Position numbers and translations under genes: made by a program. A stretch of 64,000 bases of DNA from an uncultured Candidatus Saccharibacteria bacterium (lineage in GTDB: Bacteria > Patescibacteriota > Saccharimonadia > Saccharimonadales > JAGQNJ01). A model generated the notes under the pieces. The model had not been told where the DNA came from. It made no database searches and saw only the letters and a program-made list of their open reading frames with translations. The DNA lies in contig CAZEED010000005.1 in the NCBI GenBank assembly GCA_964510945.1, forward strand, positions 4,132-68,131. The letters are read 5' to 3'. This document shows, one piece after another, positions 5,603-59,184 of the stretch (its first letter is position 1; each line of letters starts with the position of its first letter).

Positions 5603-5634
5603 GAACCTAAAAGATCATTTTTGCCCGATTATTT

Positions 5635-6756
5635 TCAGACGTAGCCTCCGCTACCGTGATTTACTTTTCTGTAAATTCGATCATATAGTCGATTAGCATC
5701 GCCTTTGGTTAAAGTTTTTTCTAAATGCCTGAGGGTAATCCTAACTAATACATTTTTCTGTTTAGGTAAAATACCTAATCTATCTTGAATCTTTTTTGGT
5801 AAATCCGCGTAAGCTGTTTCGTCGAGCACTTCTACGCTTTCCAGCACATCAACTTCATCGCCAAGAGCAATGCGAATATACTCATTTATGTCTTCTTCTA
5901 CATAGTTCTCTGGAACACTATATGACATATCTCGCCTTATAGCTGGTTGATTAGAAACCTCTCGATACGGCTTTAAATCTTTCATTTGACGGGCGATCTT
6001 TGGATTTGTCGATCTCAAATAACGTATATCTGGAATTGATTTTAGCGTCATTACTAACCTATCTAATCCAATACCTGATGCCCAGCCAGAATAAACTTTC
6101 GGATCCAGCCCAGCATTTGCTAGTATTTTTGGGTTAATCAGGCCACATTCCATGATCTCAATATCGCGGTCTTCTTTGACAGCGTTGACTTCCATCCCTT
6201 CGGTCGTATAGGGATGTGGCATGTCAACAATCCGCAGTTTCCAGCCAGGCGCAGCCACCTTTGCTATCCCTTCCACTACGCCTTTCAAATCCTGCCTCAC
6301 AATTTGTTTATTTTTGCACACGCGCCAAATACCTAGCATATGAATAGCAGACAAGTGTTTTTTGTCAGTCACATCGCGTCGATAGACAACTGCAGGCGTT
6401 AAAATTACCACGTCATCCCAATCATCTCGTTTCGCTAAATCCCGTAATATTCCTGGGATATGGGCCGTATCGTGCGTACGTAAAATGTGTGTCTCGTCGA
6501 CATAATGCGTGTAGGTAGACGAACGGCTGATATTATCCTTATCTATCAGCAAATTGTCGTAATTGTCCTCGACGCTAACTATTGGGCTACCCCGATATAC
6601 CATAATTTGACTGCTGGGGTGACTTGCTCGAATATAGTCCTCAATTTTTTGGTACAACAACTTTACCGCATGCGGTTCTTTCGAATCTGTTAAATCCGGT
6701 ACGGCTAGATACCTTTCTAGTACCTCTTTGTCGATTGGTTCTATATACATTTTCAT
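5635..6756 (-). CDS. Single-chain PheS-like class II aminoacyl-tRNA-synthetase homolog fused to a C-terminal FDX-ACB (anticodon-binding) domain
   Basis: - PheS-like core: RTHDTAHIP, motif-2-like VVYRRDVTDKKHLSAIHMLGIW, HPYTTEGMEV..IEIMECGLINPKILANAGLD, motif 3 SGWASGIGLDRLVMTLKSIPDIRYLRS.
- C-terminus matches the FDX-ACB pattern: DMSYSV..LESVEVLD..VLVRITLRHLEKTLTKGDANRLYDRI.
- Start taken at MKMYIEP (6756), 1 nt after the upstream stop. Confidence 0.75.
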   Translation of the reverse strand: MKMYIEPIDKEVLERYLAVPDLTDSKEPHAVKLLYQKIEDYIRASHPSSQIMVYRGSPIVSVEDNYDNLLIDKDNISRSSTYTHYVDETHILRTHDTAHIPGILRDLAKRDDWDDVVILTPAVVYRRDVTDKKHLSAIHMLGIWRVCKNKQIVRQDLKGVVEGIAKVAAPGWKLRIVDMPHPYTTEGMEVNAVKEDRDIEIMECGLINPKILANAGLDPKVYSGWASGIGLDRLVMTLKSIPDIRYLRSTNPKIARQMKDLKPYREVSNQPAIRRDMSYSVPENYVEEDINEYIRIALGDEVDVLESVEVLDETAYADLPKKIQDRLGILPKQKNVLVRITLRHLEKTLTKGDANRLYDRIYRKVNHGSGGYV

Positions 6757-6757
6757 T

Positions 6758-7000
6758 TTATTTCCACCAATCCCAAGGTCGGCCCACCATCTCATCTAGC
6801 GACCGTCCCTTGGCCCACGCATCATTAGCAGGTTCTGTGGCTATATCTATAGGCTCGTCGGGTGGGTTAACCAAAACTTCTGGCCCCTCCAGCATGGCTT
6901 TACCTAAATTTTGCGCCATCAGCGGCTGTACACATCTTAAGCCTCGCCCAGATTCGCCAATACACATATTTCTAACTCGTTCTCCGTTAATTTCACTCAT
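6758..7000 (-). CDS. Small hypothetical protein (80 aa) with C-terminal GRPWDWWK tail
   Basis: AAGGAG sits 6 nt upstream of the ATG at 7000. The stop TAA (6760-6758) is 1 nt from the ATG of the PheS-like gene, so the two are translationally coupled. No recognisable domain. Confidence 0.55.
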   Translation of the reverse strand: MSEINGERVRNMCIGESGRGLRCVQPLMAQNLGKAMLEGPEVLVNPPDEPIDIATEPANDAWAKGRSLDEMVGRPWDWWK

Positions 7001-7033
7001 AATTTTCTCCTTAGTCTAAATATTTTCAAATAC

Positions 7034-7079
7034 AAAAAAACCGCCCAGGAGTGATTCCCCTGGGCGGTTTTTGTTTTTT
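7034..7079 (-). terminator. Rho-independent terminator, structurally bidirectional
   Basis: Stem ccgcccagg (7041-7049) pairs with cctgggcgg (7059-7067) around a 9-nt loop. An A-run (7034-7040) and a T-run (7068-7079) flank it. It lies downstream of the 169-aa gene on the minus strand. Confidence 0.75.
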
Positions 7080-7120
7080 AGCAATACTTAAACCAGCCGA
7101 GAATCACTCCTGGGCTGCAT
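7041..7120 (-). promoter_or_regulatory. Attenuator-like element: terminator, competing 15-nt antiterminator and 10-codon uORF
   Basis: 7101-7115 (gaatcactcctgggc) is the perfect reverse complement of 7043-7057 (gcccaggagtgattc). That stretch covers most of one terminator arm (7043-7049) and most of the loop (7050-7057). The uORF ATG 7120 to TAA 7088 (MQPRSDSRLV) overlaps the upstream competing segment. Confidence 0.5.
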
Positions 7121-8062: not shown

Positions 8063-8209
8063 AAAAACCAGCAGAAAATGCTGGCTATCAAGTAATTTTG
8101 TGCATCATATCTGTCCCCTTTCATAGGGCGAGAATTGGCACCGTGGCTATTAAAGCTCGGTTGCCGGCGGTATCATTGGGCTCGATCCCTACTCCGCACT
8201 CGCAATATT
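8063..8209 (-). promoter_or_regulatory. SAM-I (S-box)-like riboswitch with intrinsic terminator
   Basis: The minus-strand RNA reads AAUAUU-GCGAG-UGCGGAGUAGGGAUCGAGCCCAAUGAUACCGCC-GGCAACC-(P3 insert)-GGUGCCAAUUCU-CGCCCUAUGAAAGGGG-ACAGAUAU. This matches the conserved S-box core blocks GGAG.GGGA, GCCC.AUGA, GGCAACC, GGUGCCAAUUC and AGAU.
It is followed by the hairpin AGCCAGCA-UUUUC-UGCUGGUU (8068-8084), a U5 tract, then the RBS. Confidence 0.6.
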
Positions 8210-8244
8210 AGTTGTTAAGTAACCACATTATACCAAATAATTTA

Positions 8245-9291
8245 CTATTTGTTGGCACGCCTTGTTAGCGCAATTAAAGGTTTGCTCGTCCACTCAATTG
8301 CTTTTCTTCGTTTATCCAGCTGGGAGCCATATGTACCGTTAACAGGATCAGTAAGTTTTATACTGTAGCTATCACTCGTTCTAGGTTCTCTGCCACCGAT
8401 GAACTGATTTCCAAGAGCCTGGAGGGCGATATTGGCTTCTGCTGCCTTTCCCCTTAATGCAGCCTCCAAATTTTCACTATGAAATTCAAAGTCATCGATT
8501 ATTGCTTTAGATGAACGCAATGCATCTAACTCATCTCGCGCAATATTTAGAAGCTCTTCGTCCAATATCGAATCTAATGCTGGTAGATCTGCATACACAT
8601 CCTCGCCCCGAACAATTGATTGAACAATATCCATATACAAGTTATATACACTTTCGCCTGAAAATTCCGACCTAATCCACGGTACTATGTCAGAGCCAGC
8701 TACAATTACTTGTTCATAATGCAGATCAGCTCTTTTGTCGTAACCTGGTTCACCAACTTTAAGAGTTTGAGAGTTAAATGGTATTAATCCTCCGGTTTGA
8801 TCTGATAAATATTGAGATCTGTAATGTTGAGTTTCAACAGGACCTTCTAGGAAACCATGAATATTTGTATATACGTTGTTAACAGCGATACCTGCACTCT
8901 TTCGATTACGAGTGCTTTCAAACGGAACAACCAATCCCACAGGTTCTGGGATATCAAGAATCGTACCAATATAACCAGCTAGGTATACAAACTTAGCATC
9001 GTGCTCATAGCTCTCGTGTGCAACATCCAGCAAAGCGACAGGCTCGCCTTGTCTACCATCTAAATAGTCATGGATTTGTTCAACGCCTGCTAGCATGCTC
9101 ATATCAAGTCCTCCGTCATCTTCGATGCCGTGACTTTTCGCGACTGCTGTCTGCAAATCATCACCAAAGGCAACCCTGTCAAAAGCAAACGCAGAAGCAA
9201 CACTACCTTCTCTGTCTTTGTAACCTTCAGGCAATTGCTCTAAATCAAAAAATATTTTCTCTCTTTGTGCTACGACTGCTTCTATTCGCAT
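8245..9291 (-). CDS. Hypothetical protein (348 aa)
   Basis: Long intact ORF with AGGGG upstream of the ATG. No recognisable domain. Confidence 0.65.
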   Translation of the reverse strand: MRIEAVVAQREKIFFDLEQLPEGYKDREGSVASAFAFDRVAFGDDLQTAVAKSHGIEDDGGLDMSMLAGVEQIHDYLDGRQGEPVALLDVAHESYEHDAKFVYLAGYIGTILDIPEPVGLVVPFESTRNRKSAGIAVNNVYTNIHGFLEGPVETQHYRSQYLSDQTGGLIPFNSQTLKVGEPGYDKRADLHYEQVIVAGSDIVPWIRSEFSGESVYNLYMDIVQSIVRGEDVYADLPALDSILDEELLNIARDELDALRSSKAIIDDFEFHSENLEAALRGKAAEANIALQALGNQFIGGREPRTSDSYSIKLTDPVNGTYGSQLDKRRKAIEWTSKPLIALTRRANK

Positions 9292-10206: not shown

Positions 10207-10494
10207 TTATCGTACAACCACGCCGTAAAAACTCTCCAGTAGTTTATAGACGATATAAGCTGGCCATACCATTGACTTTAATAAACCTGTCACGACAGCG
10301 CCAAAACCAACAGCAGCTTGCATCCAATAGACGACAGACCCGACAAATCCTACAAAATACAGCGCACCACTGGTTCCGTGAGTTGTGGCATTTGAATTCT
10401 TACCTTTTTCTTTACACCATTGTTTTAAATCATCAGCTCCGCTCAGTTTAGCTTTAAACTCTAGTTCTGGTTTTTGTGACTTTGTTTTTGGCAT
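10207..10494 (-). CDS. Small 2-TM membrane protein (95 aa)
   Basis: Lys-rich N-terminus followed by two hydrophobic helices. No recognisable domain. Confidence 0.55.
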   Translation of the reverse strand: MPKTKSQKPELEFKAKLSGADDLKQWCKEKGKNSNATTHGTSGALYFVGFVGSVVYWMQAAVGFGAVVTGLLKSMVWPAYIVYKLLESFYGVVVR

Positions 10495-45752: not shown

Positions 45753-46140
45753 TGGTGGAGCTGCGGAGAATTGCACTCCGGTCCGCTGGATTATCTTTGT
45801 TAGTCTTCTACAGGCTTAGTCTATTTAAATTTATCTTAGAAGAGTTATATATAAAAAGACAAAACAACAACTCCTCGCATATCTTATGGTTTCTTTGTAA
45901 AACTACAGATAAAAAGTTTTACGCAACCAGATGATATGACACGCTAGCAATGCTATCTGACGTCACTTTGCGCGTGGCTTTAGTTAAACTAAAGCTGGTG
46001 CTAGCTTAGGCATTTGGAAATTTCCAAAAGCTGCAACTAGCTGTTTTTTAACATTTGCAGTTAAAATTGTTGTCTATACGCTGACAAGCGACCTGCTGAT
46101 CTAACTGATAAAGTCCTACGTCGAGCATAATTTCAGCCCC
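45753..46140 (-). ncRNA. ssrA: tmRNA (SsrA)
   Basis: - 5' end GGGGCUGAAAUUAUGCUCGACG.
- 3' end CGGAG-UGCAAUU-CUCCG-CAGCUCC-ACCA.
- Acceptor stem carries a G3:U pair.
- Candidate tag ORF resumes at GCA 46058. Its stop UAA (45986-45984) sits in the loop of hairpin GCUUUAG-UUUAA-CUAAAGC. Confidence 0.93.
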
Positions 46141-46299: not shown

Positions 46300-47082
46300 T
46301 TAAGATTTTTTCTGTAATAGTGAGAACATTCGTAACCACTGTTCAATTGATAATTCTTGCGCACGGGCACTCGAATCAATCCCCAACTCCTCAAAAGCCT
46401 GATTTAGTACCTGCTTATCGTATTTTACTTCTCTCAACAGATTAGAAATAAGCTTTTTTCGCGGTTGATCAAAGGCAGCCTTTACAAGTGTTAAAAAATC
46501 CTCTATTTTATCAACTTCAATTTGTGGGGTTTCCCTCCGTTGTAACACCAAAATTTGCGAGTCAACTTTTGGTGGTGGCTCAAACAAATGCGCCGGCACC
46601 ACCTCCCCTGCCCAGGTCACATAAAAAACCTGCAGGACCACAGCTACAAACGACATTTTGCCCGCCTCAGCACTAGCCCGCTCGGCCACTTCTTTTTGCA
46701 CTAACAGTGAAGCTAAGTCTGGTTTCTTATCAGAATCAATTAATTTTCTGAACAAATTCGCCGTCAGATAATACGGGATATTGGCAACAATCTTAAAGCG
46801 CGGGGCAAGACTGCCAAAATCAAACTTTCTAATATCGCCTTCAATTACCTGCACATTCTTATTACTGGCATATTTAAATAGCAACTGCTGGGCCAAAGTA
46901 TGATCATACTCGAGGGCGGTGATATTCGCCCCAATCGCCACTAACTCATCTGTTAAAAGCCCTGTGCCAGGCCCAATCTCGAGTACATCATCCCCTGCCT
47001 TCACCTCGGCACTCTCAATCATCGCTTGCAAAGAATATTTATCCTTCAGCCAATGCTGCCCTAACTCTTTTCGTTGATTCAT
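46300..47082 (-). CDS. rsmA: 16S rRNA (adenine1518/1519-N6)-dimethyltransferase RsmA/KsgA
   Basis: LGQHWL, SAM motif VLEIGPGTGLLT, NIPY motif. Confidence 0.95.
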   Translation of the reverse strand: MNQRKELGQHWLKDKYSLQAMIESAEVKAGDDVLEIGPGTGLLTDELVAIGANITALEYDHTLAQQLLFKYASNKNVQVIEGDIRKFDFGSLAPRFKIVANIPYYLTANLFRKLIDSDKKPDLASLLVQKEVAERASAEAGKMSFVAVVLQVFYVTWAGEVVPAHLFEPPPKVDSQILVLQRRETPQIEVDKIEDFLTLVKAAFDQPRKKLISNLLREVKYDKQVLNQAFEELGIDSSARAQELSIEQWLRMFSLLQKKS

Positions 47083-47191
47083 TAACTAAATTGTATCAGA
47101 GAATTCATGAGCGAGGTTCTGGGTCTTGCACTCGAGTGCAGTCCTTTGTGCTAGTGTTTCCTCCCCCTCTCAAACACTGAGTGGATTTAAA

Positions 47192-47287
47192 TAGTTTTTG
47201 GTGAATGGATGCCGAGGACTAATCTGATTCCATACTTTAGAATTAATGAATCAGATCGCTTGCGTTCCGCAGGCACACAAAAAACTA
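47192..47287. repeat. 96-nt imperfect-palindromic structured repeat, copy 1
   Basis: 84/96 positions identical to 53797-53892 by hand alignment. It folds into a long hairpin with a conserved 6-nt bulge and a conserved asymmetric internal loop (cgcttgcgt). Confidence 0.7.
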
Positions 47288-47369
47288 TATAAATCTACTT
47301 CATGTGGCTTGAGTTGGGGCGGTACTTTTGCCATACTTTTCTTGCCGGGGAGAAAACTATGAAAAGGGT

Positions 47370-48614
47370 TTACCACCAGCCCTGGGCTTGCCAAGCACTA
47401 TAAGCCCCCTGCCAACTCCCATACCGACCATTAGCATAGCCACTAAAGTGATTTAGCTGACAAACGGGATCAGATTGCCAATTAGGACAAGCCGATATTA
47501 AGCTACCAGCGTCACACTTTTGCCCTAGACCTATGCATCGGTTAGCGCTAACGCTGGCTGGATTCCAGCCGGATTCACGACCGATGATATAGTCAACATA
47601 CTGATACTGTGATGGATCGATACCGGCAGCCTTCATCCAATCTAATTTGCTACCAGTGACTGTACCCCCAGGCAAAGCTAAATCAGTGGCCGAACCTGTG
47701 CCAACTGCAATGATTTTATCAACTGGCTTTTTAGCAACCACGGTCTTTAGCGCCTTTTTCTTTTTTGGATTAGACTTGTCGACTTCGTAAATAACAACTT
47801 TTTTGCCTTTTTCGCCCTCACGCCTAACGGCTGTTTCGCCGGCATCTAGATCAGGATCTTCAACACGCTTTTCTTTAAACGGAATACTCTCTGATTTTGT
47901 AATAATCTTTTTGCCAGGGTACGTTACATACACAACAGTGTTTGGCTTGAGCTTAGTCTTGGCTGGCGGGAATACCGTTATATCATCGCTGTTAAGACCT
48001 TTTTCGGCTATCAGCTCACCAACTGTCTTTGATAGTGTCCGCACGCTATATGTCTGACCGTACAAAACTAAACTAACTGGAATCGAACGCTTTATCACTA
48101 CTTTTTCGGCGATTACGCCTTCTTTAAGTAAATCGTCAGGTACCTTTAAGCGCACATCATCCTCCGGATAAACTTTGACCCCAACTTCTTCGGCAACCGC
48201 TCTGGCAGATTGCTGAGCACTAAGCACAGTTGTAATTTTTTTGCCGTCAATTACGGTCACCGGTCTGGCCCGATAAACATTAACCGTAAAATCATCTTCT
48301 AAAATTTGAGTACTGGCTTTTGGCTCGACCTCGTCGCCTTCGTTTAACGTTACGTTCATTCGCTTTAGCAAGTCACCGACAGTACGTGCTCTAGTAGGCA
48401 AAGTTTGCTTTTGATCATCAACGTAAACATTCACAATACGCTGGTCACCTGGCGCCACAGTGGTAGAGTTAAAACTTATAAATACGCCAATGGTCACAAA
48501 AAACAACACCATAAAGGTAATAACCGGTATCACGAGCGGATGCTTATGGATACGCATGATTTTTCGTCGCTTTTGCTTGGAAATTATCGGTTTTTTGGAA
48601 TTTTTTCTCAACAT
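47370..48614 (-). CDS. RpfB/YabE-architecture cell-wall protein: TM + 3x DUF348 + G5 + C-terminal lytic-transglycosylase-like domain
   Basis: Repeated DUF348-like ~45-aa units. G5 region (ETAVRREGEKGKKVVIYEV). C-terminal IIGRESGWNP..IGLGQ..RYGSW..GWW. Conserved synteny directly upstream of ksgA. Confidence 0.8.
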   Translation of the reverse strand: MLRKNSKKPIISKQKRRKIMRIHKHPLVIPVITFMVLFFVTIGVFISFNSTTVAPGDQRIVNVYVDDQKQTLPTRARTVGDLLKRMNVTLNEGDEVEPKASTQILEDDFTVNVYRARPVTVIDGKKITTVLSAQQSARAVAEEVGVKVYPEDDVRLKVPDDLLKEGVIAEKVVIKRSIPVSLVLYGQTYSVRTLSKTVGELIAEKGLNSDDITVFPPAKTKLKPNTVVYVTYPGKKIITKSESIPFKEKRVEDPDLDAGETAVRREGEKGKKVVIYEVDKSNPKKKKALKTVVAKKPVDKIIAVGTGSATDLALPGGTVTGSKLDWMKAAGIDPSQYQYVDYIIGRESGWNPASVSANRCIGLGQKCDAGSLISACPNWQSDPVCQLNHFSGYANGRYGSWQGAYSAWQAQGWW

Positions 48615-48726: not shown

Positions 48727-51700
48727 TTATGATTCGATTTTTTGCAGTGGCGCCAAGCTAATATCGAGTTGTTTTGTGCCCCGCGACCCAAAACTAATCG
48801 TGGCAATATCGCCATCCATATGCACCACAGTGCCCTTACCAAATACCGAATGATTAATCCCATCGCCAATCTCTAGATCGGGAACATAACGAGGCTCAGT
48901 TGATACTGCCAAAGCTTCTTTTGGCCGAGGGGCATACTCACTAGCAAACGATCCACCAAAAACTGTTGGTTGATGGGTGTCTGCTAGACGCGAATCAACA
49001 TCAGCCAAGAATCTACTAGGAGGATTATGAAGCGTTCCGCCATAAAGCATGCGACTTGAAGCATACAGCAGATACAGTTCTTGCTTGGCCCGCGTCATGC
49101 CTACATAGCAAAGCCGACGTTCTTCCTCCATCTCGCTTGCATCATATAAAGCACGGGAATGAGGAAAAACTGTTTCTTCCATACCGCTCATAAAAACTAC
49201 TGGAAACTCAAGTCCTTTAGCACCGTGCAAAGTCATCAAGGTTACGCTATCCTTATGGGTATCATTATTATCACTACTCGTCAGCAGTGATACTTCCTCC
49301 AGGAAACCTTCTAGCCCAAGCTCTTCATACTCTGAAGCAACCGATAATAGCTCTTTGACGTTTTCTTGTCTTGCTTCTGACTGCATAGTGCCGTCATCTA
49401 GATAGGTAAGGTAATCTAGTCGCCTAACTAGCGAATCAACAAGACCAGACACATTACTATCGCCCATAACCTCTCGCATTGAACGTACAATATCTGCTAG
49501 TTCTAGCAAACCTTTACGGGCTTTTGGGGTGATATCGTTACATCGATCAGCATTTTGAAGAGCTTCGTCGAGGGTTATAGCATTCTCCGTTCGCCAAGCG
49601 TTAAAGTTAATTAACGACTTGGCGCCAACGCTCCGCGCCGGCACATTCACAATCCTCTCAAAACTCATCACATCCTCTGGCTGATAGATTAATCTTAAAT
49701 ATGCCATAATGTCCTTAATTTCTTTACGATCGTAAAACCTAACACCACCAACTATCCGATACGGAATGCCATAATGAACAAAAACTTCCTCCAGCGACCG
49801 ACTTTGGGCATTCGTCCGATAAAGTACGGCAAAATCTTTGTAAGTTCTTAGCCCACCATCTACTTGATTACGAATAGTCCTAACAATTGCCTCGCCTTCA
49901 TTGCGTTCAGAACCAACCGGAATAATCTGCACCGGCAGTCCATCGCCAAGATCAGTCCATAGTTTTTTAGTAGAACGATGAGCATTTTTTGAGATAACGC
50001 TATGTGCCGCATCCAAGATATGTTTTGTGCTTCGGTAGTTTTGCTCAAGTTTTATAACTTGGCAATTTTTATAATCTTTTTCGAAGTTCAAAATATTCTT
50101 AAAATCCGCCCCACGCCACGAATAAATCGAATTATGAACTACTATCCCTGATGCTATATAGTTATGGACTTTCTCGACATCAATATCATAAACATAACCT
50201 TTATAATCTTCTTTAACTACAGATAAAACCTGCTCTTCCGTAACTGCTTGATTTTCTAGCACTGGGACCAACATACCAGGATGTATCTGCCCAGCTGGTA
50301 GGTAAATAAACTTATTGCCGGTTAAAAATGCATACTTGCTAACCTGCAATTCGAAATTATTAGATTCTTGAATTCTTTCTACGATTTTTTCTATCTTACC
50401 GTAGTCAAGATTGTGAATCTCAACCCTAAAAGTTCCTGACTTACCATTTCTAACTTTGTAGCCTAGCTCTTCAAATAACTTTAAATCCTGCTTATCGGTT
50501 GTGTTTACAGAGATTCTACTAGCTGACCAAGGGCTTTGATTTGATATTCTTTTGTCGCCAAAAAGTACCACATTAACATTAATCCGTTTGCTACCGTTCC
50601 TAGTTGTTGCTTGTGGAAAAAAATGCGGATAATCAAAATTAATTCCCTGCTTTGCCATCAATTCTGAGGCTCTTTGTTCAGTATCTATCTCTGCGTATAA
50701 GGCATCGATGTACTTTTGATCAAACTGCATAAAGCGGTTTTTATAAGCATGAAATACTAACATTGGTATCCCAAACTTATAAGAATATAGGGCTTCTTTG
50801 TACATAGCCTCTTGCCGGTTTTTGCATACCTCTAGAATCCACATTCTGTCTGCGCGTTCTTGATTTGCCCTAATCCTTAGGCCAATATCGTATTTTTTAC
50901 CATCAAATCGCGTACCTTTAGCAACTCCGATTCTATATCCTTTGCCCTGCGCGTACATCAAATATACAAAATAAGAATCTGTTTTATCCCACCTAGAAAA
51001 TAGTATATGGTTGGGTGTACATGTCAGTTCTTTGCCTGAAATAGTTTTTATACGAACAACCTCGCCTTCGTAAGCAAACTTTTTAGTCCTCGTGACTTTA
51101 AAAAACTCAGTTTTTCCATAGCCGCTAGCTGACTTTACTAGTGCTGTATTAGTCATGTTTTCTATTTTTTGAATACCATTAGCTGTTTCAATATGAGTAC
51201 CCTCAACCAGACATTGCCAATCGTCCCCGACAACTGCAATATTATTATTTTCGTTGGTTAATAGCTTGATCAGTTTGTATTGGGCGGCATTGGTATCCTG
51301 ATACTCATCGATCATCACATAGCGAAACTGTTGTTGCCATTTTGTACGGATTTGTTCATTACCCGATAACATTTGCACAGTTCTTGAAATCAAATCATCA
51401 AAGTCCAAGGCCATGGCATCCTTTAGGGTTTTTTGATATAACGGATAGATGCGCGCCGCTTCTTTTTGGGTTGGACTACTAGCAGTAGAGGTTAGCTCAT
51501 CCGGCGAGATTAACTCGTTTTTTGCACTCGAGATAATACTCGATAATTTGCGGGCCGGAAAGCTTTTTTCGTCTATAGATAGTTCTTTAGATATCTTTTT
51601 TACGCAGGCCGTTCTATCAAGTTCGTCAAAGATTACAAAGTTCTTGGGGATGCCAATTTGATCACCGTCTTGACGCAATAAACGCACACAAATACTATGA

Positions 51701-51978
51701 AAAGTTCCCATAAATGGCATAAATGATCTGTCGTCAGATCGATGACCCAATAACTGCGCTACCCGTTCGCGCATCTCGCCGGCAGCTTTATTAGTAAAAG
51801 TAACGGCTAAGATGTTGTAGGGGGTTGCCAAGTTTTTATCGATAATATAGGCGATACGATGGGTCAAAGTTTTTGTTTTGCCACTTCCAGCGCCAGCAAG
51901 AATTAACAGTGGACCCTCGGTTGACTCTACCGCCCGCTGCTGTTCGCTATTTAGATCTTTTAAAAATTCCTCAACCAC
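48727..51978 (-). CDS. pcrA: ATP-dependent DNA helicase PcrA/UvrD, interrupted by an in-frame intein
   Basis: Motif I AGAGSGKT, motif II DEYQDTN. Motif III is split as VVGDDWQ / SIYSWRGAD. Motifs IV-VI and the C-terminal Tudor-like tail are present. The exteins sum to 722 aa. Confidence 0.95.
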   Translation of the reverse strand: MVEEFLKDLNSEQQRAVESTEGPLLILAGAGSGKTKTLTHRIAYIIDKNLATPYNILAVTFTNKAAGEMRERVAQLLGHRSDDRSFMPFMGTFHSICVRLLRQDGDQIGIPKNFVIFDELDRTACVKKISKELSIDEKSFPARKLSSIISSAKNELISPDELTSTASSPTQKEAARIYPLYQKTLKDAMALDFDDLISRTVQMLSGNEQIRTKWQQQFRYVMIDEYQDTNAAQYKLIKLLTNENNNIAVVGDDWQCLVEGTHIETANGIQKIENMTNTALVKSASGYGKTEFFKVTRTKKFAYEGEVVRIKTISGKELTCTPNHILFSRWDKTDSYFVYLMYAQGKGYRIGVAKGTRFDGKKYDIGLRIRANQERADRMWILEVCKNRQEAMYKEALYSYKFGIPMLVFHAYKNRFMQFDQKYIDALYAEIDTEQRASELMAKQGINFDYPHFFPQATTRNGSKRINVNVVLFGDKRISNQSPWSASRISVNTTDKQDLKLFEELGYKVRNGKSGTFRVEIHNLDYGKIEKIVERIQESNNFELQVSKYAFLTGNKFIYLPAGQIHPGMLVPVLENQAVTEEQVLSVVKEDYKGYVYDIDVEKVHNYIASGIVVHNSIYSWRGADFKNILNFEKDYKNCQVIKLEQNYRSTKHILDAAHSVISKNAHRSTKKLWTDLGDGLPVQIIPVGSERNEGEAIVRTIRNQVDGGLRTYKDFAVLYRTNAQSRSLEEVFVHYGIPYRIVGGVRFYDRKEIKDIMAYLRLIYQPEDVMSFERIVNVPARSVGAKSLINFNAWRTENAITLDEALQNADRCNDITPKARKGLLELADIVRSMREVMGDSNVSGLVDSLVRRLDYLTYLDDGTMQSEARQENVKELLSVASEYEELGLEGFLEEVSLLTSSDNNDTHKDSVTLMTLHGAKGLEFPVVFMSGMEETVFPHSRALYDASEMEEERRLCYVGMTRAKQELYLLYASSRMLYGGTLHNPPSRFLADVDSRLADTHQPTVFGGSFASEYAPRPKEALAVSTEPRYVPDLEIGDGINHSVFGKGTVVHMDGDIATISFGSRGTKQLDISLAPLQKIES
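50131..51213 (-). mobile_element. Class 1 intein (361 aa) in helicase motif III
   Basis: - Cys1 (TGT, 51213-51211) follows GDDWQ.
- Block A CLVEGTHIET, block B TPNHILF, blocks F/G YVYDIDVEKVHNYIASGIVVHN.
- Terminal HN (50136-50131) is followed by the Ser+1 extein residue.
- A ~230-aa central insert has no intact LAGLIDADG or HNH motif visible. Confidence 0.9.
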
Positions 51979-52023: not shown

Positions 52024-52845
52024 TTAGTTTGAGATAACGTCAGTTAGAGGCTCGACACCAATATCCACCATGCCGGCATCGACAGCAAAATTTAGCGCTA
52101 CTAATCCCCCAACGATCAACACTACTAATAAGACAATCAATATCCTTATGTTGCGTTTACGACTTAACTGACCAATTGGAACATTATAAGTCTTGGCTTC
52201 AATCAATTCTTCGACATGCTTCGATCTAACTTCAAATTCTTTTTCTTCTTGTTTTTGTTTCTTACTTTCCGCTGCCTGCTCGGCCATTTCATTAACTATA
52301 CCGCCATCATCATATTCTTCTTTTGGTTCTTCTTTGATAGATTCTTTTTCTGCAGGTTGTTCGTCAGTATGCTTGGTTTCGGGTTCAGTTGACTTTATTT
52401 TTTCTTCAACTTTGTCGCTATCGCTTGGTTTTTCTGTATCTTTATTTTCTTTTGTGCTCTCATCTACTTTTTCGTCAGTATCATCAGAAATATTATCAAT
52501 AAACTTGCTGTCTGTGACGCGTTCAGCATCATTAGTCAAATCGTCCGCCTCAGGCTCATCTTTTTCGCCTTCATCTGGATTGGTTTCAGACGGAATGATC
52601 TTTATATGACTTTCGCTCGGTGGCTTGAGATTAGAGGCTAGCTTGTCGGTCATTTCTATTTTCGATATATTAGTCAAGTTGTCTTCGTCTGTACTTTGGC
52701 TTGGACTGATATCTTTTATCATTCCTGAAGGCCTAACTATCTCTGGTTTTTCTATTTTTAATTCGGGCATTTTACTTTTTTCAGTTGTGGTAATATCCAT
52801 GGATTTGTTTGAGCTGACATTTAAATTATTTGCTTTTGGGCTCAT
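52024..52845 (-). CDS. Hypothetical acidic/Lys-rich protein with C-terminal TM anchor
   Basis: 273 aa. Long E/K/D/S-rich low-complexity region, then ILIVLLVVLIVGGLVALNFAV. Abuts the tpiA stop. Confidence 0.6.
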   Translation of the reverse strand: MSPKANNLNVSSNKSMDITTTEKSKMPELKIEKPEIVRPSGMIKDISPSQSTDEDNLTNISKIEMTDKLASNLKPPSESHIKIIPSETNPDEGEKDEPEADDLTNDAERVTDSKFIDNISDDTDEKVDESTKENKDTEKPSDSDKVEEKIKSTEPETKHTDEQPAEKESIKEEPKEEYDDGGIVNEMAEQAAESKKQKQEEKEFEVRSKHVEELIEAKTYNVPIGQLSRKRNIRILIVLLVVLIVGGLVALNFAVDAGMVDIGVEPLTDVISN

Positions 52846-53633
52846 TATTTTTCCTCGACAATTTCTGTTAATGATCGATAGGCAGATTCTACTATTTCTG
52901 AGAACTTATGATAATTAAGGCTGGCTCCGCCTACTAATACTCCATCGCAACCATCAATATCCAAATACCCACGAGCTGTATGTTCATCTACGCTCCCACC
53001 AAATAACACTCTAACTCTATCGGCAGTTCGTTTGCCATACAAATCCCCGACTTGCTTACGAATATAGTCAAAGGCTTTTTTGATATCAAATGGCTTGGCT
53101 AGTTGACCTTCAAATGTACTAATTGCCCAAACTGGTTCATAAGCAATTACTATCTCTGATACTTCTTTAGCTGTCAGGTTGGCTAACGCTGTCGATAACT
53201 GATCGTGTAATACCTGATGCGTTTCGCCAGCCCGTCTTTCGGTCTTACTTTCACCCACACAAAGAATTGGTGTAATGTTGTTGCGGACGCTAGCGGCAAC
53301 TTTGTCTCTAATTAAATCCAGATTCTCACCAAAATGAATTCGACGCTCACTATGACCAATTATTACGTAATGAACAAGCTCTTGTATCTGAGTAAAAGAT
53401 ACTTCACCCGTAAATGCTCCCTCGTCTTTAGGATGGGCATTTTGGGCAGCTAGTCTAAACTTTCGTCGATCAATCTGTAGACTTAGCGGTTGAAGAACAA
53501 GCATAGTCGGGGCCAAGACAACCTCGATATCACGATATATCTTAATTCGTTCATGTAAACGATGCAGTAGCAAACTAGACTGACTTGTATTCAGATTCAT
53601 CTTCCAGTTACCGACAATTAATTTACGTTTCAT
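52845..53633 (-). CDS. tpiA: Triose-phosphate isomerase
   Basis: VGNWKMN, GHSERR, YEPVWAI, GGS motifs. Confidence 0.95.
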   Translation of the reverse strand: MKRKLIVGNWKMNLNTSQSSLLLHRLHERIKIYRDIEVVLAPTMLVLQPLSLQIDRRKFRLAAQNAHPKDEGAFTGEVSFTQIQELVHYVIIGHSERRIHFGENLDLIRDKVAASVRNNITPILCVGESKTERRAGETHQVLHDQLSTALANLTAKEVSEIVIAYEPVWAISTFEGQLAKPFDIKKAFDYIRKQVGDLYGKRTADRVRVLFGGSVDEHTARGYLDIDGCDGVLVGGASLNYHKFSEIVESAYRSLTEIVEEK

Positions 53634-53796
53634 TTGTGCTTATGTTTACCTTTGTTACAGTTTAACATATTGGAGCTTCTGCTTATACGATTTGTTATCC
53701 TACGGACGTCTAACGGCATCCGGCTTGTCCTTAGTAACTTTTTCGGTGTTGTTGTGGTTTTTAGTCCAAGCTCTGAAAAACAGAGGGTTTTTTTAT

Positions 53797-53892
53797 TAGT
53801 TTTTATCGAATGAATGCCGAGGACTAATCTGATTCCTTACTCTTAAATTAATAAATCAGATCGCTTGCGTTCCGCAGGCACGATAAAAACTA
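53797..53892. repeat. 96-nt imperfect-palindromic structured repeat, copy 2
   Basis: Outer stem tagtttttatcg/cgataaaaacta is a perfect 12 bp. The core is identical to copy 1. Located between pgk and tpiA. Confidence 0.7.
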
Positions 53893-54020
53893 ATCATAAT
53901 ACCCATATTGTTTTTCATCTGCTTGGTGGATTTTACTCAACTTTTACCACTAAAAGTTGATAGTACGCGAACATTTGTTACTCCACTGGCCAGCGGATAG
54001 CCGGCGCAAAAGTAAAAGAT

Positions 54021-55310
54021 CTACTTATCTTGTAGAACTTCAATACCTGGCAATTTTTTACCGGCAAGTAAATCTAGTGTTGCCCCACCACCCGTCGACA
54101 CATAATTAAAGCATCTAACTAGATTGCGTTCTTCAATATATGCCGAAGTGTCACCACCGCCAATCAGACTATATGGCCGATTACCAAATTGTCCAGAGAG
54201 CGCATCTAGGATTAGCTCTGTGCCGTGCGCAAACGGACCAATTGGACCGTTAACTGATGGCGTTTCGGTCACCCCCATAAGTCCATTCCATATAACCGTT
54301 TTGGCGTATTGGATACTACCAGCTATAAAAGCCCCAGAGAATGGCCCAATGTCTAAGATCAACTCATCAGCACGAATCTTTCTGGTACTGCTACGAGGCT
54401 GCCTTGGGTAACTCTCTATATCAGCGATAACATGCGCATCAAAATCTACGATCCTAGTCTTTGCGTGTTTGTCCACACTGTCAGCGACAACAAAGTCTTG
54501 TGGTAGATAAAAGACAAAGGGACGTTTTTTAGCCTCTGCTTCGGCTAGGTCTAATATATCTTTCGCAGTATCAATTTCGGCTTCATCAACTAAACTCTTA
54601 CCAACTTCAACACCCTTAGCTTTCAACAATGTATTAGCCATCGCTCCACCAATAGCCAGTAAATCAGCGGTTTTTATAAATACTTTTAAGACATCAATCT
54701 TATCGGCAATCTTTGCCCCGCCAACTATTGCGGTTAACGGTCTGACTGGATTCAAGACAACATCTGTAATCGCCTTATATTCTTTTTCAATTAACAGTCC
54801 GGCAACACTAGGCACAAAACTTGTTATCGCAACCGTTGAAGCATGTGAGCGATGAGCATTACCAAAGGCATCTTGCACAAAATAATCAACTCCACTCGCT
54901 AACTGTTTAGCAAAAGTTTTGTCGTTCGCTTCTTCTTGTGAGTAAAAACGTGTGTTCTCGAGTAGTAAAATTTGTTTGTTGTGTAGTAATTTTTTGGCAT
55001 CCTCAACTTTTGGGCCCACGCAATCATCAACAAACACAACATCTCGTTTAATGAGTTTTTCTAGAGATTCGGCTACTTTTTTTAAACTTAGATTAGGGAC
55101 AGCCTTCACATCCGGCCGACCACGATGGCTAATCAAGATAATCTTGCAGTTTTGATCTATTAGGTATTGCAAAGTAGGGAGCGACATTCGAATACGATAA
55201 TCATCTAGTACTTCGCCGTGCTCACCAGCCGGAACATTATAATCGACGCTCACCATCACCGTCTTATTATGAATGGGTACATCTTTAACAGTTTTTTTAG
55301 CTAAGATCAT
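54021..55310 (-). CDS. pgk: Phosphoglycerate kinase
   Basis: SHRGRP and GGGDT/STGGGA motifs. 429 aa. Confidence 0.95.
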   Translation of the reverse strand: MILAKKTVKDVPIHNKTVMVSVDYNVPAGEHGEVLDDYRIRMSLPTLQYLIDQNCKIILISHRGRPDVKAVPNLSLKKVAESLEKLIKRDVVFVDDCVGPKVEDAKKLLHNKQILLLENTRFYSQEEANDKTFAKQLASGVDYFVQDAFGNAHRSHASTVAITSFVPSVAGLLIEKEYKAITDVVLNPVRPLTAIVGGAKIADKIDVLKVFIKTADLLAIGGAMANTLLKAKGVEVGKSLVDEAEIDTAKDILDLAEAEAKKRPFVFYLPQDFVVADSVDKHAKTRIVDFDAHVIADIESYPRQPRSSTRKIRADELILDIGPFSGAFIAGSIQYAKTVIWNGLMGVTETPSVNGPIGPFAHGTELILDALSGQFGNRPYSLIGGGDTSAYIEERNLVRCFNYVSTGGGATLDLLAGKKLPGIEVLQDK

Positions 55311-56746
55311 ATTACTCGAACCTTAATTGTATCGGTGGTGCCAACTACTCCGGGGTGATTGCCTGATGCAGTAATTATTACATCGCCTTTTTCTAATACT
55401 TTTTCTTTAACCAGCCAATTTGTGAGTTTTGTTGCAGCAAATTTATCAACTGGTCTATCGTAACTCGTTACTCCGTAGACAATAGCCAGCTGATTAGCGA
55501 CAGATTTTTCTGACGCAACAGCGATAATCGTAGAATCAGGTCGTTGAGATGCAATATTGATTGCTGTTCCGCCCGATTTGGTCTCCGCTACAATTGCACT
55601 GGCATCGATTGTTTTTGCCAAACTAATAATTGCTCGAGAGATCGCATATTGACGATCTTTATCCTTTGGCGTTGAAGTAAATGTAGCCCTGACATCCGAA
55701 TTATTTTGCGTATAGTTAATAACCCTTTTCATGACTTTGACCGCTTCAACAGGGTATTGGCCAATGGCAGTTTCTTCAGAAAGCATAACCGAATCTGCGC
55801 CGACAATTACGGCAGTTGCAACGTCAGAAACTTCTGCCCGCGTGGGCTCCGATGCTTCAGTCATACTGGCTAGCATCTGTGTCGCCACAATTGTTGGTTT
55901 TTTATATTGTAGGCCCAGACCAATAATATGTCTTTGAGTTACCGGCACTGATTCAGGCGTGGTTTCTATTGCCAAGTCACCTCTAGCAACCATAATAACG
56001 TCAGCTTCTTGAAAGATCTCAACTATGTTTTCAACCGCTGCTTTTGTTTCTATCTTCGCAATAACTCGAGCTTTACTGCCAAGTGCCTTTAATTTACGCT
56101 TTAACTTCTCGACGTCACTAGCGCGTTGCACAAAACTAAGGGCCACGTAATCAATATCTTGCGTCGAGCCGAAAGCAATATCTTTACTGTCCTTTAAGGT
56201 GATTATGTCGCCTCCAAAATCTGTATCTGGAAGATTAATGCCTTTACGTTTGATTAACAAACCGTCATTTTTTGCTTCCGCCTGTATCAGACCATTCTCA
56301 TGCACTGCAGTAATAACAGTCTTAATTTTGCCATCGAACAAATACATCTGTTGACCACGTTTCACTTTTTTGCTCAGATCGTATTGCAGAGGGATAATGC
56401 CCGAACGCTCATAATCCGCTTTATACTTAAATTGAAGTTCTTGGTGTTTCTCGACATTGATAATTCCATCAAAGTCACCAAGCCGAATCTTTGGACCCTG
56501 TAGATCTTGAATAATCGCCACTGGTTTATCGCATTCATCAGAGGCCTTTCTGATCAGCCTAATAATCCTCTCCCACTCTTCATTATTGCCACCATGACTA
56601 AAATTAAGTCTTAGGCCATTTGCCCCAGCCTCTATTAGTCCAAGAATTGTCTCATAATCTTTGGTCGCAGGACCAACCGTGGCGATGATCTTTGTCCTTC
56701 GATATTTAGAGGCGTGCGTTTTACTGAATTGTTTAGTTTGTTCCAT
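55307..56746 (-). CDS. pyk: Pyruvate kinase
   Basis: TKIIATVGPA, NFSHG, MVARGDL and EET-type motifs. 4-nt overlap with pgk. Confidence 0.95.
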   Translation of the reverse strand: MEQTKQFSKTHASKYRRTKIIATVGPATKDYETILGLIEAGANGLRLNFSHGGNNEEWERIIRLIRKASDECDKPVAIIQDLQGPKIRLGDFDGIINVEKHQELQFKYKADYERSGIIPLQYDLSKKVKRGQQMYLFDGKIKTVITAVHENGLIQAEAKNDGLLIKRKGINLPDTDFGGDIITLKDSKDIAFGSTQDIDYVALSFVQRASDVEKLKRKLKALGSKARVIAKIETKAAVENIVEIFQEADVIMVARGDLAIETTPESVPVTQRHIIGLGLQYKKPTIVATQMLASMTEASEPTRAEVSDVATAVIVGADSVMLSEETAIGQYPVEAVKVMKRVINYTQNNSDVRATFTSTPKDKDRQYAISRAIISLAKTIDASAIVAETKSGGTAINIASQRPDSTIIAVASEKSVANQLAIVYGVTSYDRPVDKFAATKLTNWLVKEKVLEKGDVIITASGNHPGVVGTTDTIKVRVI

Positions 56747-56823: not shown

Positions 56824-59184
56824 CTATGAAATCTTTTTTTCTAATTTATTAATATCCAGCGTGGTTTTAACCACTGTATCTGGCGCCAGCGAAATACTAT
56901 CAATCCCAGCTTCCACCAGAAAACGAGCAAATTGAGGGTAATCCGACGGGGCTTGCCCGCATAAACCTATTTTTGTTTTGGTACGTTTGGCAACTTTTAT
57001 TACCTGTGTAATGAGCGCCTTAACAGCATCGTTATTCTCATCATAGATATGAGCAACCGTGCTATTATCCCTGTCAACTCCAAGAGTTAACTGCGTAAGA
57101 TCGTTACTACCAATCGAAAAGCCATCAAACAACTCTGCAAACTGCTCGGCCAAGATGACATTAGACGGTATCTCGACCATCACATATAACTCAAAACCAT
57201 TGTCTCCTTGTTTTAACCCTGTACTTTCCATGACTTTAATCACATTTTTTGCCTCAGTAATATCTCGACAAAATGGCACCATAGCTTTTACATTGGTTAA
57301 GCCAAGCTCATTTCTAACTTTTAAGAATGCTAGACATTCTAGTTTAAAGGCCTCTCGATATGCATCGCTGTAATATCGGCTTGCCCCACGCCAACCTATC
57401 ATAGGATTATTCTCTTGAGGCTCAAAATTCTTACCGCCTATTAAATTAGCATACTCATTAGTCTTAAAATCGCTAAACCTGATGATTACATCATTTGGAT
57501 AAAATGCCGCACCAATCACAGCAATACCCTCGGCTAATTTATCGATAAAATATTGAGCTTTATTTTTATAACCTTTGGTAAGCTTCTCAATTTCGTTTTT
57601 TGCATGTTCGTCCTCTAGTTGATCAAACTTGAGTAACGCCATTGGGTGAATCTTGATATGAGAATCGATAATAAACTCTTCTCTTGCTAGACCCACTCCG
57701 TCGTTAGGAATCAAAGAATAGGCAAAGGCGTGGTCTGGCGAGCCGATATTCATCATTATCTTGGTCTTTGGTCGAGCCAAATTCTTGATATCAGTCTTAT
57801 TGACTTTATACTCTAGCTCTCCTTCATAAATATAGCCCTCATCGCCCTCAGCACAACTAACCGTGACACTAGATTTGTCGGCAATTTTACGGGTAGCATC
57901 CGCTGTACCAACTACACATGGGATTCCCAGTTCTCGGGACACAATAGCGGCGTGGCAAGTTCGGCCACCCTTATCAGTCACGATGGCGCTAGCTTTTTTC
58001 ATTATCGCCACCCAATCAGGATCTGTCATCTCTGTCACCAAGACATCGCCTTCTTTAAATGACGCAATATCCTTAAGGTTCATTATCTTGCTGGCTTTAC
58101 CAACACCAATCTTACTACCAACACTAGAGCCTTTTGATAAAATCTTTCCTTTTTCAACCAACTGATATTCTTCGATTATATTATTATCTTTTTGAGATTG
58201 AACCGTCTCTCCACGTGCTTGGACAACATATAATTTATTGTCGTCTTCGTCCAATGCCCACTCGATATCCATATGATGACCATAATGTTGTTCTATTGCC
58301 ATGCCCCAATTGGCTAGTGTAATAGCTTCGTCGTCAGTTATAGAATATCGCTCTTGGTCTTCTTTAGAGACTGGGGTATTTTTTGTTTTGCTGCCAAAAG
58401 CTGGTACCATCTTTTCTTTTTTTGTGCCCACCTTCTTTTTTATTATCTTCATAGTGGGTTTAAAAATAGTAAACTCATCTGGACTAACTCGCCCCTGAAC
58501 AATATTTTCACCAATGCCATATATCGAACTAATAACAATAGCGTTTTCAAAACCAGACTCAGTATCAACGGTAAACATAATGCCGGCAGCCCTAGAGCGA
58601 ACAGCAACCATCTGCTGAACACCAACAGACAATGCTACTTTCATATGTTCGAAATTATTTTCTACTCGGTAAACAATTGCACGATCATTAAAAAGCGATG
58701 CGATACATTTTTTAGTAGCTTTTAGCACGTTACGCTCGCCTTTAATGTTCAGGTAAGTCTCTTGTTGACCAGCAAAGGACGCGTTAGGCAAATCTTCAGC
58801 AGTGGCTGATGATCTGATAGCAACTACTAGATTTTTTTTGCCACATTTTTGACTGAGTTCTTTATAACCACGCCTAATTTCGTCTTCAAAATCTTTAGGG
58901 AACTTGGACTTTATTATTAAATTCCTGATTTTTGATCCTCTAGCTTTTAAATCATTAATGTTCTTAACATCAAGACCAGCTAAAATATCTTCGACTTGCT
59001 GACGTATCCCCACAGAATCCAAAAAATAATAATAACTTTCGGCGGTCGTAGCTAACCCATTAGGCAGATTTACTCCCTTCGGAGCGAGGTGACTATGCAT
59101 TTCGCCAAGCGAGGCGTTTTTTCCACCAACTTGCGGTATATCATCTATAGAAATGTCTTCAAAAAATTTTACGTATTTATACAT
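56824..59184 (-). CDS. ppsA: Phosphoenolpyruvate synthase (pyruvate, water dikinase)
   Basis: N-terminus VGGKNASLGEM. Phosphohistidine region GGRTCHAAIVSRELGIP. C-terminal PEP-utilising TIM domain. Confidence 0.95.
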   Translation of the reverse strand: MYKYVKFFEDISIDDIPQVGGKNASLGEMHSHLAPKGVNLPNGLATTAESYYYFLDSVGIRQQVEDILAGLDVKNINDLKARGSKIRNLIIKSKFPKDFEDEIRRGYKELSQKCGKKNLVVAIRSSATAEDLPNASFAGQQETYLNIKGERNVLKATKKCIASLFNDRAIVYRVENNFEHMKVALSVGVQQMVAVRSRAAGIMFTVDTESGFENAIVISSIYGIGENIVQGRVSPDEFTIFKPTMKIIKKKVGTKKEKMVPAFGSKTKNTPVSKEDQERYSITDDEAITLANWGMAIEQHYGHHMDIEWALDEDDNKLYVVQARGETVQSQKDNNIIEEYQLVEKGKILSKGSSVGSKIGVGKASKIMNLKDIASFKEGDVLVTEMTDPDWVAIMKKASAIVTDKGGRTCHAAIVSRELGIPCVVGTADATRKIADKSSVTVSCAEGDEGYIYEGELEYKVNKTDIKNLARPKTKIMMNIGSPDHAFAYSLIPNDGVGLAREEFIIDSHIKIHPMALLKFDQLEDEHAKNEIEKLTKGYKNKAQYFIDKLAEGIAVIGAAFYPNDVIIRFSDFKTNEYANLIGGKNFEPQENNPMIGWRGASRYYSDAYREAFKLECLAFLKVRNELGLTNVKAMVPFCRDITEAKNVIKVMESTGLKQGDNGFELYVMVEIPSNVILAEQFAELFDGFSIGSNDLTQLTLGVDRDNSTVAHIYDENNDAVKALITQVIKVAKRTKTKIGLCGQAPSDYPQFARFLVEAGIDSISLAPDTVVKTTLDINKLEKKIS

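Follow-up and report, generated by a model that had tools for sequence, protein, structure and literature searches.

What is a long palindromic repeat doing inside a glycolytic operon, and does the operon need it? In the window, that is, the whole stretch of 64,000 nucleotides that was analysed, the genes ppsA, pyk, pgk and tpiA form a tightly packed block that is interrupted between pgk and tpiA by a gap of 387 bp holding a hairpin-forming element (copy 2). An earlier note on this DNA had described this gap correctly, and the gene identities are backed by Pfam (Table 1). A second copy of the element (copy 1) lies in the spacer between a G5/DUF348 (rpfB-like) gene and ksgA. The shared placement reported for the two loci is borne out as well: each copy follows a stop codon, is antisense to its flanking genes and precedes the next start codon by a distance (111 nt and 163 nt) that matches the earlier figures. 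From this arrangement, a role in operon polarity, mRNA processing or differential stability had been proposed. The window derives from a genome of Saccharibacteria (TM7): the closest homologues of its Pgk are named Saccharibacteria or Saccharimonadales, and a 21-nt word from the core of the element is present, among species-representative genomes, only in one Candidatus Saccharibacteria metagenome-assembled genome.

The surroundings of the two loci hold several further features. A search of the window with Rfam 15 yields two matches at the gathering score, one to tmRNA and one to a SAM riboswitch, and no others. The tmRNA gene (45753-46140, minus strand, 96.6 bits), which ARAGORN missed, lies directly downstream of ksgA, and a large serine recombinase gene adjoins the corresponding ksgA/tmRNA region in two of the contigs used for comparison (L012 and L029), which suggests an integrated element near ksgA and the tmRNA gene. 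The riboswitch is of the SAM-I class (8104-8211, minus strand, 49.3 bits). A UvrD/PcrA helicase gene (48727-51978, minus strand, 1083 aa) contains an intein; in sister strains and relatives (L029, L030, L024 and L034) the protein is intein-free and 722 aa long, so the presence of the intein is polymorphic.

Anatomy of a modular palindromic unit

The two copies form a direct repeat with 86% identity (47186-47287 and 53791-53892), and core words of 21 and 27 nt each occur exactly twice in the window, against zero occurrences expected by chance. When the 64-kb window is searched with a covariance model of the element (CM R1), copy 1 scores 115.7 bits and copy 2 scores 115.2 bits; the next different site reaches 13.4 bits, and the reverse-strand self-matches of both copies reach 28-29 bits. 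The copies are also the longest inverted repeats of the window, with 24-nt arms that stand 72 nt apart (53785-53808 and 53881-53904 in copy 2). Complementarity does not end there. Alignment of the 5' flank with the reverse complement of the 3' flank shows that it runs on for 45-50 nt per side, and in copy 2 the arm-to-arm alignment reaches ccaagc...gcttgg. The unit is therefore modular and about 200 nt long, comprising an imperfect palindrome of 162-163 nt to which a U-rich linker and then an AT-rich hairpin are joined. The element had previously been given as 96 nt (53797-53892), which are the inner part of the copy 2 palindrome; the centre so described is real, whereas the full size was wrong.

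The longer palindrome accounts for other similarities between the loci. A further similar stretch that had been seen outside the hairpin (47300-47318 versus 53915-53930; ttcatgtggcttgag.. and ttcatctgcttgg) is genuine and is explained by the outer 3' arm, whose partner is ccccctctcaaacactgag (47164-47181) in copy 1 and ccaagctctgaaaaacagag in copy 2. Both local hairpins listed for copy 2 exist too (53939-53960 and 53771-53785): caacttttag...taaaagttg is the conserved tail hairpin, P4, and ctctg-aaaaa-cagag lies within the 5' arm. An AT-rich hairpin equivalent to P4 is found 3' of every family member, high-GC copies included. No P4-type hairpin occurs in the window outside the two units, and the idea that P4 serves this genome generally, as an uptake signal or a terminator hairpin, was rejected, as the window shows no enrichment of it.

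Table 1. Positions of the genes, the element copies and their parts. Coordinates are those of the window unless a contig is named.
Feature	Position	Strand	Basis
ppsA	56824-59184	-	
pyk	55307-56746	-	
pgk, upstream gene at the split junction	54021-55310	-	PF00162, E 7.5e-123
tpiA, downstream gene at the split junction	52845-53633	-	PF00121, E 2.4e-74
G5/DUF348 (rpfB-like) gene, upstream of copy 1	47370-48614	-	
ksgA/rsmA, downstream of copy 1	46300-47082	-	PF00398
Copy 1 (type A), long imperfect palindrome, rpfB-like gene/ksgA spacer	47160-47322	+	inverted repeat I3, arm alignment, CM R1, CM R2
Copy 1 core	47210-47275	+	
Copy 1 tail hairpin P4, CATACTTTTCT-tgccgggg-AGAAAACTATG, after GGCGGTACTTTTGCC; terminator-like on + strand	47332-47361	+	
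Copy 2 (type A), long imperfect palindrome	53766-53927	+	inverted repeat I1, arm alignment, CM R1, CM R2
Copy 2 core: H2 5' half TGCC, GA, GGAC, distal hairpin ATCTGATT/AATCAGAT, CGCTTGC, GTTCC, GCA, H2 3' half GGCA	53815-53880	+	motif parse
Copy 2 tail hairpin P4, CAACTTTTA-ccac-TAAAAGTTG, after U-rich linker ggattttact	53939-53960	+	read in sequence
Local hairpin CTCTG-aaaaa-CAGAG with T run, within copy 2 5' arm; terminator-like on + strand only	53771-53795	+	
Type B remnant: outer 5' arm GGCATCCGGCTTGTCCTTAG... fused to GTGTTGTTGTGGTTTT, centre gone	53715-53760	+	comparison with intact type B in L024, L034
Polymorphic 338-bp cassette; unrelated 49 bp instead in sister strains (98-bp spacer)	53671-54008	.	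alignment A2
Type A copy in contig L001	4539-4644		
Divergent type A copy in contig L001	7322-7427		

Either strand of both units folds as a long interrupted hairpin followed by P4. The minimum free energy of the copy 1 unit (47150-47365) is -72.1 kcal/mol on the plus strand and -68.0 kcal/mol on the minus strand, and that of the copy 2 unit (53760-53965) is -62.7 and -64.4 kcal/mol, with z-scores of -7.0 and -7.9, respectively. Overall, the z-scores of the folded units range from -5.5 to -7.9, and from -5.7 to -7.9 on the gene strand.

A covarying core in a wider superfamily

The window copies belong to a type, here called A, of which further copies were recovered by pattern scans and context look-ups. 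Besides the two copies in L001 (Table 1), type A is found in L022 and L023, whose copies are near-identical to each other, and as a variant in L029 and L030. Among type A copies, unrelated yet complementary sequences take the place of both the distal hairpin and the inner closing stem, the distal hairpin occurring as ATCTGATT/AATCAGAT, ACCGAAAGT/ACTTTCGGT or CCCCGAATT/AATTCGGGG; in a set of four type A sequences, 13 of 29 pairs are compensated. A regular-expression scan uncovered type B, a shorter relative, in L001, L024 (three copies), L029 and L034; it consists of arms, TATCAGGCGAGGACTGTYTGAG, a variable hairpin, TGAGTTCCRCAGRC and arms again. Both types have the same layout of long arms, a 4-bp helix (H2), a GA/RCA internal loop, a GGAC/G(U)UCC helix and a distal module. 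Family-wide, H2 and the distal hairpin covary, with H2 alone taking the forms UGCC/GGCA, AGCC/GGCU, AGGC/GCCU, AGUU/GACU, CGGC/GCCG and GCGC/GCGC.

The core extends beyond the Saccharibacteria. The type B core pattern matches four IMG/VR contigs, three of them high-GC, and one high-GC contig (L036) carries a D3112/Mu-like prophage of a sort typical of Proteobacteria. The words GCGAGGACTGTCTGA and GAGTTCCGCAG are invariant across the type B and IMG/VR contig copies, and core words of 15 nt and 11 nt are conserved between Saccharibacteria and high-GC bacteria. Across type A, type B and high-GC copies, the loops stay constant and the helices vary by compensatory substitutions. In a test of covariation on the alignment of type B and high-GC copies with a four-helix structure, 87.2% of cells pair, compared with 69.4 +/- 2.2% in shuffles (0 of 500 reach the observed value) and 33-46% in slid registers; double changes affect 14 of the 20 pairs. 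A second covariance model (CM R2) was built from this alignment, with no type A sequence included, and it matches both window copies on the plus strand (copy 2 with 21.7 bits and an E-value of 7e-5, copy 1 with 16.2 bits and an E-value of 0.0065). Because a model made without type A still detects the window copies, types A and B constitute one superfamily with a common fold.

The common fold also bears on a hairpin, GCTTGCG/CGCAGGC, that the earlier note had drawn in the element. This hairpin competes with the pairing of UGCC/GGCA and GGAC/GUUCC, which covaries across the wider family. It was considered as a helix P3, and its apparent compensation in L001b turned out to be the same G/A polymorphism as in type B, which has no partner strand; without a counterpart in type B, the hairpin is regarded as doubtful.

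It is possible, if on the doubtful side, that the core, with its H2, GA/RCA loop, GGAC/G(U)UCC helix, UGUCUGAG-hairpin-(C/U)GAG and possible tandem G-A pairs, is a new structured RNA or single-stranded DNA motif that has spread across phyla on mobile DNA, reaching proteobacterial-like hosts as well as Saccharibacteria. Such a motif might act as a small catalytic RNA, bind a protein as a module, or be a small RNA (sRNA) borne by a mobile element, and the long arms and terminator tail would then be its scaffold for delivery and expression. Readings of the core as a kink-turn, hammerhead, attC or oriT were inspected and none fits. Self-cleaving ribozymes (hammerhead, twister, pistol, hatchet and HDV-like) were also rejected, since Rfam gives no match and the CUGA..GAG motifs, judged by eye, are unlike the hammerhead core.

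Three copies lie within 8 kb of L001 and three within 21 kb of L024, and inverted, back-to-back pairs occur in L024, L029 and L038. In L036, two inverted family members (9024-9097, minus strand; 10218-10289, plus strand) flank a DUF2971 gene beside the D3112/Mu-like prophage, whose transposase and S24 repressor genes occupy 4856-7090 and 8083-8757; the DUF2971 gene is possibly a cassette bounded by the elements. A TopA-like open reading frame in L037 (9694-10443, minus strand) includes a short type B-like element in frame (about 10273-10335), which amounts to an insert of about 60 aa. Among the high-GC copies, direct repeats of the form GCCGAG-NNN-CGCAGG are present on both sides of the core hairpin in L038 (225-345) and in the equivalent flanks of L036 and L039, and look like the core minus its middle. 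Finally, orphan outer 5' arms of type A (cttcccctctcaaa...) stand beside type B elements in the spacer downstream of rpfB in L024 (16975-17000 and 17255-17285, both minus strand), which points to a mosaic history of modules.

Whole-spacer alleles at orthologous junctions

Contigs that encode a TpiA identical to that of the window fall into two spacer classes at the pgk-tpiA junction, filled and short (alignment A2: the window, L003, L006 and L008 versus L002, L004, L007 and L010). In the filled class, the 387-bp spacer of L003 and L006 is identical to that of the window, and L008 is the same over the part covered. The short class has a 98-bp spacer in L002, L004 and L007, and L010 agrees with this short allele in sequence as far as its coverage goes. 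The difference is a replacement: where the short allele has 49 bp, the window has an unrelated 338 bp, without target duplication. Both spacer lengths recur at 97% Pgk identity. L029 has a pgk-tpiA spacer of 98 bp as measured by gene coordinates, its sequence being unaligned, and L028, L030, L031 and L032, found through their 97%-identical Pgk, have a 387-bp spacer with a type A element. At the rpfB-ksgA junction, L029 and L030 carry type A together with type B, and L031 carries type A only. The two junctions thus assort independently among L029, L030 and L031, the first of which is short and the others filled at pgk-tpiA.

Farther relatives add depth to this picture. An intact type B element occupies pgk-tpiA in the same place and orientation in L024 (88% Pgk identity) and L034 (69%), and the window itself has its type A copy beside a mere remnant of a type B arm. 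In four species of Saccharibacteria at 62-64% Pgk identity, the pgk-tpiA spacers measure 14-30 bp, and the rpfB-ksgA spacers measure anything between zero and a few hundred bp, some of them holding extra genes; no element was found in about 95 kb of these four. The 14-30-bp spacers of these distant relatives indicate that the packed pyk-pgk-tpiA arrangement is ancestral. As a separate observation, in the more distant Saccharibacteria L040 (545-1729) and L042 (3242-4387) the region a few kb upstream of pyk-pgk holds an RVT_1 reverse-transcriptase gene and a TraG/T4SS-like gene, and copies of the element are absent near these genes.

Comparison of the spacers shows an element that, to judge from these alleles, entered one clade, had its types swapped there and is now lost or exchanged among strains as whole spacer alleles. 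Neither junction offers a clean empty site or a target-site duplication. Because every comparison of filled with empty alleles is a replacement of the whole spacer, transposition is not a supported reading; homologous recombination may be what spreads spacer alleles between strains.

These alleles lend no support to a dedicated, conserved role in operon polarity, for which the orthologous junctions are the relevant check. The element is absent in the conspecific strains with identical TpiA (L002, L004, L007 and L010), in L029 and in the four distant Saccharibacteria, and a different element, type B, takes its place in the intermediate relatives. Such absence and exchange at an orthologous junction mean that the element behaves as a dispensable, exchangeable repeat, and its effect on pgk and tpiA, if there is any, is probably a by-product.

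The empty alleles also largely refute the idea that the element is a cis-regulatory leader, such as a riboswitch or attenuator, of the downstream genes tpiA and ksgA. The position of both copies within 111-163 nt upstream of a start codon would suit a leader, as would the good conservation of the spacer upstream of tpiA among the window, L024 and L034. However, strains with the same TpiA lack the element, the genes that follow the copies (tpiA, ksgA and others) have no relation to one another, and both the terminator-like tail and the better-folding strand are opposite to the genes. Other copies lie between convergent genes and within an open reading frame, and Rfam gives no match, which together leave a leader function very improbable.

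The cassette-like replacement of spacers would also be expected of a DNA-level site, at which the palindrome, extruded or folded as a single strand of DNA, would offer its core for recognition or cleavage by a recombinase, an HUH-type nuclease or a similar enzyme that mobilises the element or neighbouring cassettes, any RNA effect being incidental. The patchy spread across phyla, including copies beside a Mu/D3112-like prophage, and the inverted pairs, one of which flanks the DUF2971 gene, agree with such a site. Covariation is compatible with it, since G-T wobbles are tolerated in single-stranded DNA and covariation therefore cannot separate RNA from single-stranded DNA. However, no copy has an adjacent candidate enzyme gene, duplications or precise junctions were not found, and the conserved U-tract and P4 tail read more easily as a transcription signal. 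On balance, a DNA-level site is unlikely.

Strand, known repeat families and a possible effect on mRNA

The strand on which the element reads (plus in the window) folds better than its complement in 13 of the 16 units, by 6-20 kcal/mol in the high-GC copies. In the window and in L022, L036 and L039, this strand also has sites consisting of a hairpin and a T run on the 3' side of the core. Counted by us from the gene tables, 14 of 16 loci have the 3' tail pointing at the 3' end of a gene that converges on it. Copies in sense orientation (those of L023 and L039, and the second one of L036) are located where transcription units end. The tail may accordingly be a one-way terminator, such that only the antisense orientation would be tolerated inside operons. 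At both window loci, the terminator-like sites are all on the plus strand, opposite pgk and the rpfB-like gene; an intrinsic terminator of the upstream gene is thus ruled out at both, the strand being wrong. Elsewhere in the window, a strong bidirectional intrinsic terminator (7024-7084), with 26-nt arms and a GC-rich stem between A and T runs, shows that this genome uses canonical terminators, unlike the sites adjoining pgk and the rpfB-like gene.

A strand bias of this kind could betray a family of independently transcribed, antisense structured sRNA genes, in which the plus strand would be expressed as a long hairpin with its own terminator and the core would bind a protein or a target in trans. 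The better-folding strand, the tail facing a convergent gene end and the terminator-like sites, which occur in low-GC and high-GC members alike, would all fit such genes, and conserved loops combined with covarying helices are what functional RNAs display. Upstream of copy 2, the element strand also has a predicted sigma-70-like sequence, TTAACA-N18-TA(Y)NAT, which by eye is kept in L024 and L034. However, no promoter common to the copies at unrelated loci was found, and the same strand has an additional terminator-like hairpin ahead of the core, on its upstream side. Counts of G-U against A-C wobbles, from which the strand might be called, are contradictory (12 versus 25 in the strand-neutral arm alignment, 12 versus 7 by alifold and 8 versus 5 in the core); they favour neither strand, and the call was dropped. 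In addition, one copy is in frame within the TopA open reading frame, the element is dispensable between near-identical strains, and head-on transcription within an operon would be costly. An sRNA gene family is therefore the main rival to the reading favoured below, a serious possibility though not a likely one.

Protein-coding readings were likewise considered. No conserved small open reading frame is common to the units on either strand. A coding peptide was rejected, as the MPRTN... frame of some copies is broken by a stop in copy 2 and the hairpin lengths vary out of frame, and a type I toxin-antitoxin locus was rejected for want of a conserved small hydrophobic open reading frame on either strand.

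Database searches place the element in no known family. With a permissive threshold, the best Rfam match around copy 2 is a miRNA model with an E-value of 0.25, and the type B and high-GC loci have no match at either the gathering or the permissive threshold. ARAGORN reports no tRNA-like gene, blastn against phage and plasmid collections gives no match, and searches of the literature by sequence and by topic gave nothing relevant.

By description, several families of palindromic repeats are alike. The ERIC or IRU sequences of Enterobacteriaceae and Vibrio span about 127 bp and are imperfect palindromes whose central core is conserved; they form part of operon transcripts, are present in some strains and missing from others, and can change how mRNA decays. 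The likeness of the window family to ERIC is one of description, and the host range differs; we know of no report of a terminator-like tail in ERIC. RPE of Rickettsia are palindromic repeats that can lie in frame within protein-coding genes, and the mechanism of their mobility is unknown. The relative within TopA in L037 resembles them in this respect, but it is the single in-frame case seen, and the window copies are intergenic. REP sequences and REPINs, which are mobilised by RAYT transposases, resemble the family as multi-copy intergenic hairpins downstream of genes whose stems are kept by compensatory change. In contrast, REPs are 20-40 nt long with a conserved GTAG end and conserved stems, whereas the core of the window family is in the hairpin centre; no RAYT gene was seen. 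A generic MITE was rejected, because conserved terminal inverted repeats are missing: the arms differ between copies yet stay self-complementary, and the centre is conserved. The arm motifs are absent elsewhere in the window, to which the search for related insertion sequence ends was limited.

The Correia repeats of Neisseria (CREE, also called NEMIS) come close in form. Like the window family, they are palindromic intergenic repeats (about 100-155 bp) with a directional core, and they are strain-variable, occur beside prophage and are sometimes found within open reading frames. CREE are co-transcribed with neighbouring genes, and RNase III binds or cuts the hairpin that they form (PMC2649163). 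There are differences as well. The 26-bp terminal inverted repeat of CREE, TATAGYGGATTAA(C/A)A..., is missing from the window family, which conserves its centre, not its ends, and has an extra tail hairpin; it also shows no TA duplication or precise presence/absence alleles, and its alleles differ instead by a whole-spacer replacement, 338 bp for 49 bp. Compared with authentic CREE sequences from the supplement of PMC2649163, the family shares only CTTGTCCTGAT..TTTTGT.AA and AGGCGAGG, which are not collinear, and local alignment scores are marginal relative to shuffles. Homology to Correia repeats or to E. coli REP was rejected, GCCGGATGC and CAGGACAAG being merely short words.

We tentatively favour, at somewhat less than an even chance, the reading that the element, as a palindromic intergenic repeat that its host does not need, represents a new family of the Correia, ERIC or RPE kind, and that its reverse complement folds as a long hairpin in the operon mRNA. 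With the broad kind of hairpin-forming intergenic repeats it has in common that it is multi-copy, imperfectly palindromic, intergenic and strain-variable. Whatever uses or propagates the element may do so by recognising the conserved core; no candidate partner enzyme gene was seen adjoining any copy. Given that both window copies are antisense, the operon mRNA would hold the reverse complement, an interrupted duplex of about 80 bp, which would be a likely substrate of RNase III or a barrier to 3' exonucleases and could uncouple the stability of the pgk segment from that of the tpiA segment. Only on the other strand does the tail look like a terminator, so the orientation seen here is the one that spares transcription of the operon. 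The predicted stability of this long hairpin in the operon transcript (-64 to -68 kcal/mol on the gene strand) makes an effect on mRNA processing or stability physically plausible.

Some features run against the repeat reading. Ordinary MITEs conserve their ends, whereas here it is the centre that is kept while the arms drift, a pattern closer to that of a functional RNA. Conservation of the 15-nt and 11-nt core words between Saccharibacteria and high-GC bacteria exceeds what would be expected of junk. The better-folding element strand and the terminator-like tail would fit an RNA made from the element strand, not from the operon strand.

The repeat family appears to be new and previously undescribed; the kind to which it belongs, hairpin-forming intergenic repeats, is known, and its small core is also present in unrelated high-GC bacteria. 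Because Saccharibacteria genomes are very small and tightly packed, a dispensable insertion of 200-340 bp in a core glycolytic operon is a clear marker of selfish or exchangeable DNA, and likewise of recombination among strains in an organism that resists cultivation. Population genetics at the strain level gains ready markers in the swaps between types A and B and in the filled/short polymorphism at pgk-tpiA, which also provides a natural experiment on whether long hairpins within operons change expression. More broadly, a core that is supported by covariation, absent from Rfam and yet recurring in high-GC bacteria may be a new functional nucleic-acid motif, and two working covariance models, R1 and R2, now exist with which to search for it.
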